Source: Octopus vulgaris (taxonomy: Eukaryota). Taken from it: a stretch of DNA of 64,000 nt. The stretch lies in contig OX597819.1 of NCBI GenBank assembly GCA_951406725.2, positions 806,001 to 870,000 of the forward strand. The letters run 5' to 3'. The notes beneath the pieces are model-generated. The model worked only from the letters and a program-made list of their open reading frames with translations. It ran no database searches and was not told the DNA's origin. Below are positions 8,272-54,608 of this stretch, in pieces. The position numbers were made by a program, and so were the translations under genes. Positions within the stretch are counted from its first letter, which is position 1. Every line of letters begins with the position of its first letter.

Positions 8272-9687
8272 CCAGTCCTACAGAAAAAAAAAACACTATT
8301 GACACACAATAATTTCTCTATTGAACTAGTTGCCAAGAATGTATTATAATATTCCAATTATTTTTCTGATTTACTCAAACCTTATGTAGATTGGGGGTTA
8401 TAATCCATGCCTCTGTAAACAGTTAAAGTGGATTCTCTTTGGGTCAGATGAAATCCCTACACAAGATTGAAACTATTTTGACTGATCCCTCTTTTGTAAC
8501 CCACAAAGCTATTATGTACGAGAACCAAGTGGCTACATTTGTTTATCTATTGCTATATTCTTTACTACAGTAGAGCATGTAAATATTTATATATTAATCA
8601 TTCATAATGTAGAACTTGAAAAATATTATCTCACTCATTGAAACATTACAAAATTGAGATTTCATCAGAGAAGAAAGATATACAGAGTTTGGTCTCAGAA
8701 CTATCAAAATTGAAAACTTGCCTAGTACATTGGGCAAGTGTCTTCTACTATAGTGGCTGGCTGATCAATGCTTTGTGAGAGAATTTAGTAGACAGAAAAT
8801 TGTGTATATATATATATATCAAAAGTGTGTGTTATAACACTATTCCACATATACAAAAACAGCAATACCAACAATCCAACACACCTCTATCATCAGCTGC
8901 CCCACAGATATCATTATGGTTTCAACACCTGGGCAGTACCATTCAATTCAGCAGTGTCAACAGCACTAAAATAAGTGTTGTTTGGGAACAAACATCTCAA
9001 AGAAATGACAACTTTCAAACACATTTATCCTATGTACAACAATATTGGTAAATAAATTCTATAAGTAAATCAATAACCAGCTTCTAAATATGTATGTAAC
9101 TAAACAGCGACCAAACCTTTAAGTCATACATGTAGTCTTCCACAGTATAATATAAAAGTGAAAGCTTAATAACCACATTCATTCAATCTAATATAGGCAG
9201 GATTAAACACAAACTTTAAAATTAAACTGCAATAAAGAAACATCTGTATCAATACATCTGTATCGGTATTAATAGTAAACCTACAATAACTAAATTATAT
9301 ACTAAAAAGTAATAATCCCACCAGTCTTCCATTGTTACTACTATAATAAAAAAGTGAAAGCTTTATTTCAATTCTCTCTAAAACAAAACATGATTGAATA
9401 TAATTTAACGAATAATATAATAATTATAAAATAATACATTATTTCATAATTCAAAGGTTAATAATAAAAACACTACACGCTCATTAATATATATTACCCT
9501 TACAAGCTTTAATATAAATTTACCAATATATATATATATTTTATATGAAATATAAAGCCAAAAAGGAAAAATTTAGTCATCACTAATTGTAACTGAGGGT
9601 GTTGGTAGTAGCTGTATTGTTAGAAATAATAGTTTAAATCCTTAAATGACTGACAGGGGAGATAACCATCCCATAAGCAAAGCTAGA

Positions 9688-9739
9688 TCACTGAACTAGA
9701 TTAGTTTCACCAGTAAAATCGCAGGCTCGTCAGTAGTGA
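9688..9739 (-). ncRNA. Type I hammerhead ribozyme
   Basis: Minus strand TCACTA-CTGACGA-GCC..GGT-GAAA-CTA(ATC)TAG-TT-CAGTGA; complete core, stem I TCACT/AGTGA with one mismatch next to the core. Confidence 0.7.
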
Positions 9740-9893
9740 CTACTCCATCACTGAATTGTTTGGTGAAATCTAGACTGTCAGTATATATACTGTATATTTA
9801 TCAAATATATTTATGGGTGAGCGAAATGCTAATGTGAAAATTGCAAAATAATGTAGGCAGTCATTCACAATATAAAACCAAAAAAGGAAAATT

Positions 9894-10366
9894 CATAATG
9901 GAAGGCACGGTTTACAGTATCGGGAGGATATCACCTTCTCCCATTATATCTTGTTGTTTGTGTAGTTCAGGCTCCAGCAGGTGAAGAAAGAAGTCTTTAA
10001 GTACAAATGCAATTTACAACCAGTTTATTTACAAGTTTCACAGGACAGGTGAAGTGCGTTGCTCTCAGCAACCATCTGTGTGCATGGTGTTGTATCTCCA
10101 TTAGTACAGGCACATTACCTCTGGAGGTACAACGTGCAGACAGGCCCAGCCAGTGAAGTGTGCTCACCAAGTGCTGCTGTGAAGAAGCAGAGAGAGAGAA
10201 CGAGTCTGCTTCTGTTTTGTCCTTATATACAGTTTGCCATCACCAGCCTCGTTCTGATATTGTGCATGGCAAATGGATGAAGATGAGGTCTCGCTCCAGT
10301 TTCGGAGATGACAGTGGCTGCTGCAAGATCTCATCCAATATGGCGCTGACTGCTTGTGCCATTACA
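9894..10366 (-). mobile_element. Probable solo LTR (473 bp)
   Basis: 4-bp TSD AATT (9890-9893 and 10367-10370); minus strand TGTAATGG...CCATTATG termini; TATATAAGG then AATAAA in the right order; splits the duplicated unit cleanly. Confidence 0.6.
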
Positions 10367-10414
10367 AATTAAATCATCACTGATTGTGACTGACGGTGCT
10401 GGGTAGCACTTATA

Positions 10415-11662
10415 TTGTTAGAAATAAGAGTTAAAAGGGCTATTAGAGAAAAGAGACAGGCTTGGAAGGACTGGAAGAATGGTGGTAGCAGGGAATTGTA
10501 TCAGACTGCCAAAAGGGAAGCTAGGAGACAGGTCTATTTAGCCAGAGGGGAAGCGGATAAGAAAAAATTTGCCAATGTTCTGCGCCGTGAGGACCAAAGA
10601 CTTGAGGTGTTTCGTGTTGCAAGACAGTGTGTGAGAGAGAATCGTGATGTGGTAGGAGAGAAGTGTGTTTGCATGGAAGATGGTTCACTTGCGCTAAATG
10701 AGGATGCAAAGAGAGAGGTTTGGAGACGCCACTATGAAAGGTTGCTGAATAAAGAAAATGAATGGGATAAAGAGAGTCTGCCGAATGTTGACCCAACAGA
10801 GGGACCAGCTATCCAAGTTGACAGTTCCTTGGTAGTTAAGGCAATTAGAAGCATGAAGACAGGGAAAGCCCCAGGCCCATCAGGAATCACTGCAGAGATG
10901 CTCAAAATATCTGGTAGTGTCGGCTATAGCCTAGTCACCCGTATAGTTAATCAGGTGATACACGAAGGAGTCATACCCAATGACTGGTGTAGCAGCATAA
11001 TAGTCAACTGCTACAAAGGTAAAGGTAACGCTTTAGATACAAATAATTACAGAGGTATCAAGCTGTTGGATCAGGTAATGAAGGTTACGGAGAGGGTCAT
11101 AACCCAACTAATTAGAGAGAGAGTTAGTTTAGATGAGATGCAGTTTGGGTTCGTGCTAGGGAAAAGTACTACTGATGCTATATTCCTGGTAAGGCAGCTG
11201 CAGGAGAAATACCTAGCCAAAGATAAGCCCCTGTACCTGGCTTTTGTTGACATGGAGAAAGACTTTGACAGGGTCCCCCGATCCCTTATCTGGTGGTCAA
11301 TGAGGAAACTAGGGATAGATGAATGGTTAATGAGAGCTGTGCGAGCCATGTACAGGGATGCCGCTAGTAAGGTGAGGGTTGGCAATGAGTACAGTGAAGA
11401 ATTCCGGGTAGAGGTAGGGGTCCACCAAGGCTCAGTCCTCAGCCCCCTCCTATTTATCATAGTCCTCCAGGCAATAACGGAGGAATTCAAGACAGGATGC
11501 CCCTGGGAGCTCCTCTATGCTGATGATCCTGCTCTAATTGCTGAGTCACTATCAGAACTGGAGGAGAAGTTTCAGGTGTGGAAGCAAGGATTAGAATCGA
11601 AGGGCCTTAGAGTCAATCTAGCTAAAACCAAAGTCCTAATAATCACAAACGCCTTCAGGTAG
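10415..11662 (+). pseudogene. Non-LTR reverse transcriptase ORF (RTE); no endonuclease domain; frameshift near 11640
   Basis: KAPGPSGI, NYRGIKLL, QFGF, FVDMEKDFDRVPR, GVHQGSVLSPLLF and YADD motifs. Confidence 0.93.
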
Positions 11663-53028: not shown

Positions 53029-53104
53029 ATCATACTGAAGATCTACAGATAAAATGCGTAAGTAGAATTACGTAATTTATTGATAGTGAAACGTTGTTTA
53101 TGAT
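53029..53104 (+). ncRNA. Type I hammerhead ribozyme with long stem II
   Basis: ATCATA-CTGAAGA-T.CTA..ATAAA.TGCGTAA(GTAGAA)TTACGTA.TTTAT..TAG.T-GAAAC-GTT-GTT-TATGAT; perfect 6-bp stem I. Confidence 0.7.
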
Positions 53105-53282
53105 TAATCTATATTTTTGTTACTTTTCATGTCTTGCTCGCTTACGTTTCTGGTGTTTGCTAAATTTTCTAGAGAACAATTCTTAGTGGTAAGACCATAA
53201 CGGATCTTCTAGCATAAGGGTTTCCACATAGTGGTAATTCCCTCTTATATGTATGTAATATATATATATATATATATATATA

Positions 53283-53440
53283 TGACAGGCTTCTTTCAGT
53301 TTCCTTGTACCAAATCTACTCACAAGGTTTTGGTTGGCCTGAGGCAATATTAGAAGACACTTGCGCAAGGTGCCATGCAGTGGGACTGAATCCTGGAACC
53401 ATGTGTTTGGGAAGCAAGCTTCTTACCACACAGCCATGCA
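53283..53440 (-). mobile_element. SINE family A, 5' part
   Basis: Head motifs as at 39483; further copies at about 2430, 54920 and 56640 (-) and 55710 (+). Confidence 0.75.
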
Positions 53441-53848
53441 TGTGCCTTTTTAATCATCACCATGGGGATAATTAAAACAATTATTATTTGAAAGATAATG
53501 CTGACATGTGATTATATATCATCCTCATCAGTTATCATCCACTTTCAACTGGATGAATACCATAGATCACCATTTCATTATTTCTTGTGCAGTCAATATG
53601 CATTCATAATATCTTAGGTCTGTGCAATTCTTCATATTATCAATGCATATATTTTGTAGTTTTTCTCTTCCACTTTTATTTTGCTACATATTACAGTCTC
53701 CATGAAGCATGTTTTCCTAATTAAGTATCCCAAATATTCTTTTCTATTCTATGTATATATATACATATATATGTATGTATGTATGTATGTATATATATGT
53801 ATATATATATATATATATGTATATATATATATATATATATATATATAT

Positions 53849-54608
53849 ATAACATAAGGGACTAAAGCCATCTGAATATGGCTAGGGACAGGGCAGGGTG
53901 GTGGGGGTGTTACTGTTGCATTTAGCCCCAGGCGAACATCGACGTCACCAGAAAGGCCCGAGACCGTCACGGTGTCCTTAACCTGCAAAGGGAGGTAATT
54001 CCCCGATGAAGCGGAAACCACACACGGACCATGGTTTCAAGGTGTATTGCCTATCGTCGGCGTGTGGTAGGCTTCCGCTTCCTCGACGAACTCTCACTCT
54101 GCAGGATATTCATATATAGATTTTCAAGCAAAATACATTTGCTGATTTCGAAAATCTGTTCGAAAGCAATAATAATTCTCTAAAAGAGATATAGACAGTA
54201 ACTGCTCGATAACATAAGGGACTAAAGCCATTTAGAGAATTATTATTGCTTTCGAACAGATTTTCGAAATCAGCAAATGTATTTTGCTTGAAAATCTATA
54301 TATGAATATCCTGCAGAGTGAGAGTTCGTCGAGGAAGCGGAAGCCTACCACACGCCGACGATAGGCAATACACCTTGAAACCATGGTCCGTGTGTGGTTT
54401 CCGCTTCATCGGGGAATTACCTCCCTTTGCAGGTTAAGGACACCGTGACGGTGTCGGGCCTTTCTGGTGACGTCGATGTTCGCCTGGGGCTAAATGCAAC
54501 AGTAACACCCCCACCACCCTGCCCTGTCCCTAGCCATATTCAGATGGCTTTAGTCCCTTATGTTATCGAGCAGTTACTGTCTATATCTTTTAGAGAATTA
54601 TTATTGCT
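53849..54608. mobile_element. Young retrozyme-like insertion: two inverted, differently permuted, terminally redundant 360-nt units
   Basis: Arms 53849-54184 / 54231-54566 (336 bp, one mismatch seen); 23-nt redundancy at 53849/54209 and 20-nt redundancy at 54231/54589; (TA)n on both sides. Confidence 0.88.
54330..54411 (+). ncRNA. Type I hammerhead with U4C core (mirror copy on the minus strand at about 54004-54085)
   Basis: GAAGCGGAAGCC-TAC-CACACG-CCGACGA-T.AGG(CAATACA)CCT.T-GAAAC-CATG-GTC-CGTGTG-T-GGTTTCCGCTTC. Confidence 0.8.

Follow-up and report, generated by a model that had tools for sequence, protein, structure and literature searches.

Hammerhead-bearing units in the window and their families

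The stretch of Octopus vulgaris DNA analysed here (64,000 nucleotides (nt), positions 806,001 to 870,000 of the forward strand of contig OX597819.1, GenBank assembly GCA_951406725.2; hereafter the window, whose first letter is position 1) contains three loci that a preliminary description took for a diversified lineage of retrozymes, that is, short non-coding retroelements bearing type I hammerheads. A relaxed type I hammerhead descriptor, controlled with 30 block-wise dinucleotide shuffles, returned exactly four cores in the window (-9733..9694, -42699..42665, +54355..54388 and -54060..54027, the sign giving the strand), compared with a mean of 0.23 and a maximum of 2 in the shuffled windows. 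The core at -54060..54027 is the inverted twin of that at +54355..54388, both lying in locus 3, and all three loci thus bear hammerheads as claimed. Searches against Rfam, run on the window, six loci and two narrowed regions, gave no hammerhead and no other family of note at any threshold tried, and the hammerhead assignment therefore rests on the descriptor together with covariation. ARAGORN found zero tRNA in six loci, hence no tRNA-derived head. The loci do have the UAN/U bulge described earlier and a stem III that is palindromic or nearly so, BLAST found no similarity between the three units, in line with the little overall similarity noted before, and TCGATG..CCTRGGGCTAAA is indeed common to loci 2 and 3. 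The statement that each unit occurs as more than one monomer holds only loosely (about 1.8 units at locus 1, about 1.6 at locus 2 and inverted arms rather than a tandem at locus 3), while the quoted size range of 320-360 nt suits loci 2 and 3 (354 and 360 nt) but has to be corrected for locus 1, where the unit is about 342 nt and not 320.

Each locus proved to be a member of its own genome-wide family, which we call F1 (locus 1, old), F2 (locus 2, middle, here subfamily F2a) and F3 (locus 3, young). Locus 3 consists of two inverted arms of about 380 nt each, set in (TA)n. Counting unit positions from the cleavage site, arm A (53849..54231, minus strand) runs from site 1 at nt 178 down to nt 1 and then from nt 360 to nt 156, and forms part of a 336-nt perfect inverted repeat; arm B (54231..54608, plus strand) covers nt 203 to 360 and then nt 1 to 222, the latter being site 2, and carries A296G (54324) as arm A does. 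The hammerhead of arm A (54027..54070, minus) has the core CCGACGA (U4C), which is the F3 core, and the stem III CCAUGG, with predicted cleavage at 54027/54026, and that of arm B (54345..54398, plus) is predicted to cleave after 54388. A predicted imperfect duplex of about 50-58 bp (54297..54444, plus; z -7.1) extends stem I and carries the hammerhead at its tip. It is followed by a domain shared between subfamilies (54411..54566, plus), comprising H1 (GGGG/CCC), TAAGGACAC/H2 (54435-54455), H3 ending in GGGCTAAA (to about 54494) and H5 (54532-54549), and its end is priming site 1 (54566). Between the two priming sites lies a Penelope-type 'tail' (54567..54608, plus), 42 nt long here and 44 nt in the family. 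The target is (TA)n-rich on the left (53750..53848) as well as on the right (54609..54708).

Locus 2 is a single F2a arm from site 1 (42489..43062, minus), made up of unit nt 174 (approximately) to 1 (42489-42664), a full 354-nt unit (42665-43019) and, beyond a deletion that destroyed the second hammerhead through GAAA, nt 337 to 304 (43029-43062). Its intact hammerhead (42655..42709, minus) has the core CUGAUGA and the stem III CAUGCAUG, with predicted cleavage at 42665/42664, and the shared domain is present in a first copy at 42487..42649 (minus) and a second at 43004-42847. Directly adjoining is a short interspersed repeat ending in (ATG)n (42327-42480), probably one of the abundant octopus repeats resembling short interspersed nuclear elements. 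Locus 1 is a decayed F1 arm (9542..9895, minus; nt 177 to 1 at 9542-9693 and nt 341 to 144 at 9695-9895) with 75-85% agreement with the family majority. It is interrupted by a 470-nt insert (9896-10365), for which no match was found in any locus compared, and continues at 10366..10436 (minus; nt 150 to 80), where it is cut by an RTE-like long interspersed nuclear element (LINE; 10394-12416, plus) with two long frames of 422 and 257 aa. The single hammerhead of locus 1 (9684..9743, minus) shows an A.C closing mismatch, a GUU site and a fold z of -0.6, from which we would judge it likely to be inactive. As no window copy has two intact tandem hammerheads on the same strand, none should itself be able to release unit-length RNA.

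We followed the families from each locus through the 2.8-Gb assembly by similarity and pattern searches. F3 copies are 99-100% identical (754 candidates, 40 of them scored) and the exact F3 core occurs in 396 copies, whereas F2 copies are 88-94% (2,864 candidates) and F1 copies 68-82% identical (524 candidates). Besides F1, the loci read comprise at least eight subfamilies (F2a-e, F3, F4/F4b, F5 in L122 and F6 in L099). Units close head-to-tail at 360 nt in F3, 354 nt in F2a, 353 nt in F4 and about 342 nt in F1; closure was seen in 13/20 hammerhead copies of F2a, 1/11 of F4 and 1/8 of F2b, and F3 forms head-to-tail arrays of up to 11 units. The F3 and F2a circles contain no open reading frame (ORF) above 68 aa, the longest ATG frame being 68 aa, and target duplications of roughly 7-11 bp are visible in L036, L043 and L050. 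These properties support the assignment of F1, F2 and F3 to unit-length, hammerhead-bearing, non-coding retroelements of the non-LTR (long terminal repeat) retrozyme type, and the families and domain subfamilies together substantiate the earlier picture of a diversified lineage whose members have a downstream domain in common. The domain pattern had 0 matches in metagenome and viral contigs. Contigs from three sequencing runs (X1, X4, X8), corresponding to 54231-54587 of the window, carry further F3-related subfamilies as loose ends, for one of which the exact pattern was not found in this assembly. In 3/4 sequencing runs, which are RNA only by guess, F3 appears as a 390-391 nt contig running back on itself; a tandem array gives the same, and it was not counted as evidence.

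Insertion anatomy and the shared domain

To describe the insertions we mapped 106 F3 insertions collected by similarity search (three), by pattern listing (two) and by direct fetching, which do not amount to a census; we excluded L212 (fragmented), redundant loci for one insertion, L129 singletons, alignment pieces below 93% identity and a few bases where ends were truncated. Two fixed sites, separated by 44 nt, account for as many as 173/187 arm ends (site 1, n=87; site 2, n=86), with 79 arms ending exactly at nt 178 and 69 at nt 222, and (TA)4+ adjoins 158/187 primed ends. Two inverted arms are present in 81/106 insertions, 65/81 of which pair one site-1 with one site-2 end. The arms measure 0.2-11 turns of the unit and join centrally, mostly with 0-6 nt of overlap. 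F2a displays the same two-end pattern at about 172-174 and 229-231, the ends of F1 are less sharp than those of F3 and F2a, and inverted partner arms occur in both F2a and F1.

Taken as anatomy, two fixed ends bounding a tail, inverted arms and a (TA)n target read as the insertion signature of Penelope elements. An inverted arm, a tail and a (TA)n bias have been described for these elements (PMC8557442, PMC3846280), and with a purified Poseidon protein both strands of AT-rich DNA are cut and reverse transcription begins inside the RNA, at the two sites between which the tail lies (PMC11167929). The strongest evidence, which the preliminary description did not include, is genome-wide: the priming sites, the (TA)n targets, the inverted arms and the haplotypes considered below. 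Two departures from the usual arrangement were observed. L205, L259 and L204 contain perfect central palindromes in which both arms stop at one unit position, as opposed to the usual staggered junction, and in L189 (335-988) the innermost units of both arms agree in a divergent haplotype at nt 38-100 that the outer units lack, reflecting either a shared template switch or the partial copying of one arm from the other.

With regard to the shared domain, a GGGA..UCCC hairpin followed by TAAGGA had been reported for all three loci. The motif is real, since the pattern GGG..CCC..TAAGGACAC has 4,729 matches in the genome (overlaps counted) and its reversed control only 1, and the shared motifs belong to a domain of about 170 nt downstream of the hammerhead in at least eight subfamilies. 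The TAAGGA of locus 1, however, is not homologous: the window copy of F1 lacks about 23 nt present in other F1 copies, a deletion that makes this TAAGGA an artefact, and only 2/25 F1 copies have TAAGGA within 60 nt of the hairpin. Sharing across the three loci is likewise confined to loci 2 and 3, whereas F1 has just H1 of the domain by sequence, a hidden Markov model of the domain giving E values of 0.7-0.9 in 2/25 F1 copies. A different repeat family (L008:2070-2119, L012:2996-3047) has some 55 nt in common with F3 nt 104-161, around H5, which suggests module exchange.

The case for RNA structure differs between helices. In an alignment of 13 domain sequences pairing holds in 86% of the cells, and both sides have changed in 11 (0/500 shuffles), such double-sided change being confined to inner H3 (2/6 pairs) and H5 (3/6 pairs). 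For the GGG/CCC hairpin (H1) a covariation check found compensatory change in 0/4 pairs, so that its presentation as an RNA hairpin was not upheld, and in the predicted fold of the circle H1 is buried inside the long duplex extending stem I; it may fold in an alternative way or else be a site for a protein or a promoter. We also considered ATATAAGG as a TATA box and rejected it, as F3 and F5 lack it. About 58 nt on either side of the hammerhead are predicted to form an imperfect duplex in 8/8 copies from 7 subfamilies, with folds of -40 to -68 kcal/mol compared with -19 to -29 in shuffles, and the whole F3 circle has a predicted fold of -116 kcal/mol (z -6.2, 100 shuffles). The closing pair of stem I in F1 is G-C in 10/25 copies and A-U in 10/25.

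Template, helper and editing

The F3 arms also provide information on the template. The cleavage junction is crossed by 159/173 arms and is exact in 172/178 passages, and 48/173 arms reach at least 720 nt, the longest being 3,920 nt. No unit position is avoided by inner ends, which fall at the cleavage site no more often than expected (3/173 versus 3.4), and the template was therefore no run-off linear monomer. Insertions are uniform in haplotype: 84/90 carry one haplotype throughout (permutation mean 10.7, maximum 21 in 2,000), as do 68/71 at nt 295/296 (permutation mean 22.6), and the agreement extends across both arms in 60/64 cases, and in 51/53 at nt 295/296. Variants private to an insertion span whole arrays, for example A104G in 6/6 units of L181, and locus 3 of the window, with A296G in both arms, fits this pattern. 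Divergence within F3 insertions is about 0.18%, most variants being private to one unit. One short template copied repeatedly accounts for the uniform insertions, and a covalent circle would be the simplest such template.

We propose, with a probability of roughly 0.68, that the octopus families are non-autonomous Penelope-type retrozymes and that a Neptune-type protein combining reverse transcriptase (RT) and endonuclease cuts (TA)n and, starting from both cut ends, copies a single RNA circle made by the hammerhead. A tandem array would be transcribed and its hammerheads would cut the transcript to monomers of about 350 nt, probably as dimers because stem III is palindromic; dimeric hammerheads with palindromic helix III have been described (PMC4209133). 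The predicted duplex of about 55 bp would hold the ends for a host ligase, which by analogy may be RtcB (PMC7229834). A Penelope protein would then bind, probably via the conserved domain of about 170 nt that ends at the priming sites, and cut (TA)n. The cDNA starts lie internally at nt 178 and nt 222, one per DNA end, and by comparison with PMC11167929 would be the work of this enzyme. Each RT would roll round the putative circle for the 0.2-11 turns seen in the arms before the two cDNAs join at the observed central junctions. Changes at the RNA level, in F3 likely A-to-I edits, would thereby be copied into every unit.

As for the helper, we scored 150 of 6,136 candidates from a PF01541 search, and 16/150 of these GIY-YIG matches sit in a 781-aa open frame with RT, CxxC and GIY-YIG (Neptune-type). 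This young intact family (L111-L121, e.g. L114:2826-5168, plus) has 10 copies 96.5-99.7% alike and an upstream frame of about 479 aa, and it terminates in (TA)n at two sites, some 36-38 nt from each other. In its pseudo-LTR (pLTR), CCAAT/CRE-like boxes recur alongside a TATA-like box, and there is a degenerate hammerhead with the core UUGAUAA. By age and target this TA-targeting Neptune element is the likely helper. A second Neptune-type family (L122, L125, L128, L084) bears a type I hammerhead that looks canonical, its stem III being the palindrome GUAC, and has two 3' ends separated by about 31 nt. Two exact genome matches exist for a 24-nt motif from the Octopus Naiad consensus (PMC8557442), both in fragments without long ORFs, and the domain matches in one of them fall far from the Naiad match. 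Domain matches near GIY-YIG loci are separate retrozyme insertions, no Penelope protein match came from same-strand motif pairs spaced 2.5-3.5 kb on C1, and TAAGGACAC does not occur in the supplement text of PMC8557442, as far as that text is accessible and with line breaks that may hide matches.

Several observations weigh against the proposed mechanism. The helper is unproven, as 150 of 6,136 candidates were scored. No autonomous element was seen to carry the domain, which had 0 matches in the pLTRs of 48 GIY-YIG loci and was likewise not found as part of the two Naiad fragments examined. Within the domain, compensatory pairs are lacking in H1, H2 and outer H3 of the 13-sequence alignment, RNAalifold pairs H3 differently, and the double-sided changes in H3 and H5 are few and related events. 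Uniform arrays would also be expected from linear transcripts of uniform parent arrays, and hammerhead cleavage is dispensable for insertion in vitro (PMC11167929). Moreover, 15/81 insertions with at least three copies of a position have a variant in some units only, and L129 mixes several haplotypes within one 11-unit arm; such mixed insertions need template switching or later duplication.

These points bear directly on the alternative that survives best, to which we give a small though appreciable chance, namely that the units are non-autonomous Penelope derivatives and were copied from linear multimer transcripts that had not been cleaved, the hammerhead being a passenger or used occasionally and no circle serving as template. 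Unprocessed RNA is the main substrate in vitro (PMC11167929), a heterogeneous linear template would suit the mixed arrays L129, L130, L287 and L302, and seamless junctions without ends at the cleavage site are predicted here too. On the other hand, a variant in a single unit of the parent should reach one daughter unit, whereas private variants fill all units of both arms; single-unit variants are strand-symmetric and insertion-wide ones are not (see below); and compensatory change keeps the hammerhead stems and the flanking duplex.

The uniform haplotypes with occasional switches would also follow if a cleaved linear monomer were reused by end-to-end template jumps of a telomerase-like RT, its two ends brought together non-covalently by the predicted duplex. 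Template jumps usually leave scars. The near-invariably exact junctions and the lack of enrichment of inner ends at the cleavage site make this improbable. We find it just as hard to credit that short insertions were amplified later at the DNA level by unequal crossover or slippage, in the manner of satellites, as has been proposed for vertebrate arrays (10.64898/2026.07.22.740005): L129, L287 and L302 do share variants block-wise, but both inverted arms are expanded with variants in common, the low divergence within F3 insertions consists mostly of single-unit variants, and the 48/173 arms of at least 720 nt were already long. That the units are 5'-truncated tail ends (pLTRs) of ordinary coding Penelope elements, with which they share tail, inversion, target and hammerhead anatomy (PMC8557442), is very improbable in general and unlikely for F3 and F2a in particular, because units close on themselves head-to-tail in F3, F2a, F4 and F2b, the F3 and F2a circles lack longer ORFs, and in the 253 loci searched by Neptune tblastn no unit holds an RT and GIY-YIG ORF, the 2 matches both being separate neighbours; the question raised in the preliminary description, whether these are ordinary pLTRs, is thus answered with no.

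A further feature of the circle-templated insertions that we propose concerns their variants. In the first 64 insertions A>G makes up 11/22 distinct insertion-wide variants against 9/107 single-unit ones (p 2e-5), and in the pooled spectrum (106 F3 insertions, ribozyme strand, sites 46, 68 and 69 excluded as deep markers) 11/21 against 14/186 (p 1.4e-6). The ratio A>G:T>C is 11:2 among insertion-wide and 14:9 among single-unit variants, the latter being strand-symmetric (G>A 43, C>T 38). A295G recurs on 5 backgrounds (12 insertions) and A296G on 4 (10 insertions). The octopus lineage is known for heavy RNA editing. We lean slightly towards the view that insertion-wide A>G changes reflect inosine in the RNA template, the likely source being A-to-I editing in F3. 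Stability selection as the cause was rejected, as most paired sites go from A-U to G-U. Editing is called into question by a second F3 set, chosen for closeness to clean haplotypes, in which 1/3 new variants is A>G (p 0.21), by F2a, which shows no A>G excess (4/25 versus 29/240, p 0.53), by the lack of an ADAR neighbour bias at the A>G sites and by their merely mild enrichment in duplex (8/16 A>G sites versus 28/89 adenosines). The recurrence of A295G and A296G may also be due to recombination, because T200C recurs too.

Tentatively, these strands may be combined into a more specific picture, which we regard as possible but doubtful: F3 would be active now or have been so very recently, Neptune would prime twice on one 360-nt circle, ADAR edits would enter the germ line, and the recruitment domain would not derive from the helper. 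If this is true, the genome records rolling-circle retrotransposition together with a heritable, RNA-editing-driven evolution of a mobile RNA.

Among the other contents of the window, very long (ATA)n and (ATG)n arrays (15400-16610, 17485-19842 and 19845-21523) adjoin duplicated 3' fragments from a second LINE-like RT frame, and fragmented transposase frames, which we take to be hAT-like by resemblance, lie at 23198-25217 (plus).

Comparison with known systems

The octopus families behave as non-LTR retrozymes moved by Penelope machinery, showing every membership feature that could be tested, with cleavage and circle as predictions. The retrozyme class is known; what appears to be new is the mechanism-exposing insertion anatomy, together with the shared domain and the A>G signal. 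Nothing was found in the published literature on cephalopod retrozymes, although the supplementary repeat lists of PMC7229834 and of a bioRxiv preprint may hold cephalopod repeats, nor on two-site retrozyme priming, insertion-wide haplotypes or A>G carry-over; the accessible part of PMC8967140 does not mention ribozymes. Repeat databases may already list them by other names. For animal retrozymes, rolling-circle copying by a borrowed Penelope enzyme has so far been a proposal only (PMC7229834, PMC7761336, in their accessible parts). F3 offers a base-resolution footprint of priming sites, target, two-armed product and a single haplotype per insertion, and, since this genome also encodes a matching, intact candidate enzyme, the model can be tested in the Penelope in vitro system. 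Should the A>G excess stem from inosine, there would be a direct path from RNA editing to inherited DNA change, and a circle of about 350 nt directing multimer insertion into (TA)n would be of interest for RNA-templated genome writing.

The metazoan non-LTR retrozymes of coral, mussel and axolotl (PMC7229834) are likewise non-coding tandem units, of 150-450 nt, with a canonical type I hammerhead, a weak palindromic helix III and a highly self-paired unit, and they too co-occur with Penelope elements and have target duplications of more than 4 bp. Penelope-driven copying of RNA circles was proposed for them in the same work, whereas no conserved motif in metazoan retrozymes is said to point to their helper (PMC7761336). 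Unlike for the octopus families, no cephalopod, fixed priming sites, microsatellite targeting or conserved domain is reported in the accessible text of PMC7229834; in turn, its circles were seen by northern blot, while the octopus families are known here from genome sequence.

Two internal RT starts bounding a tail and an inverted 5' arm are found likewise in Poseidon PAc (PMC11167929) and in Neptune, Naiad and Hydra (PMC8557442). Endonuclease-positive Penelope elements also place a hammerhead upstream of the RT starts, and Naiad and Hydra prefer (TA)n (PMC8557442), as does the octopus Neptune family described above. The octopus retrozymes differ from these elements in being ORF-less, in repeating a closed unit up to 11 times, in a tail of 44-57 nt compared with 30-40, in a canonical hammerhead seated on a predicted duplex of about 55 bp, and in showing no similarity to the pLTRs examined. 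Chlamys elements such as MRC1 (PMC8557442) are also non-autonomous, Penelope-type and inserted as multicopy head-to-tail arrays, but unlike the octopus retrozymes they resemble their helper at the 3' end and belong to a clade mostly devoid of hammerheads.

The closest conclusion is that of the work on vertebrate retrozymes (10.64898/2026.07.22.740005), which holds as well that retrozymes ride on Penelope elements, on the basis of co-occurrence and pLTR homology in 35 species, its accessible text listing classes without a mollusc; 8/9 Xenopus retrozyme dimers did not cleave in that study. There the link to Penelope is pLTR homology, whereas in the octopus it is insertion anatomy, with no such homology found among the pLTRs examined, and while the vertebrate work favours later amplification at the DNA level, the octopus arrays look multimeric at birth.

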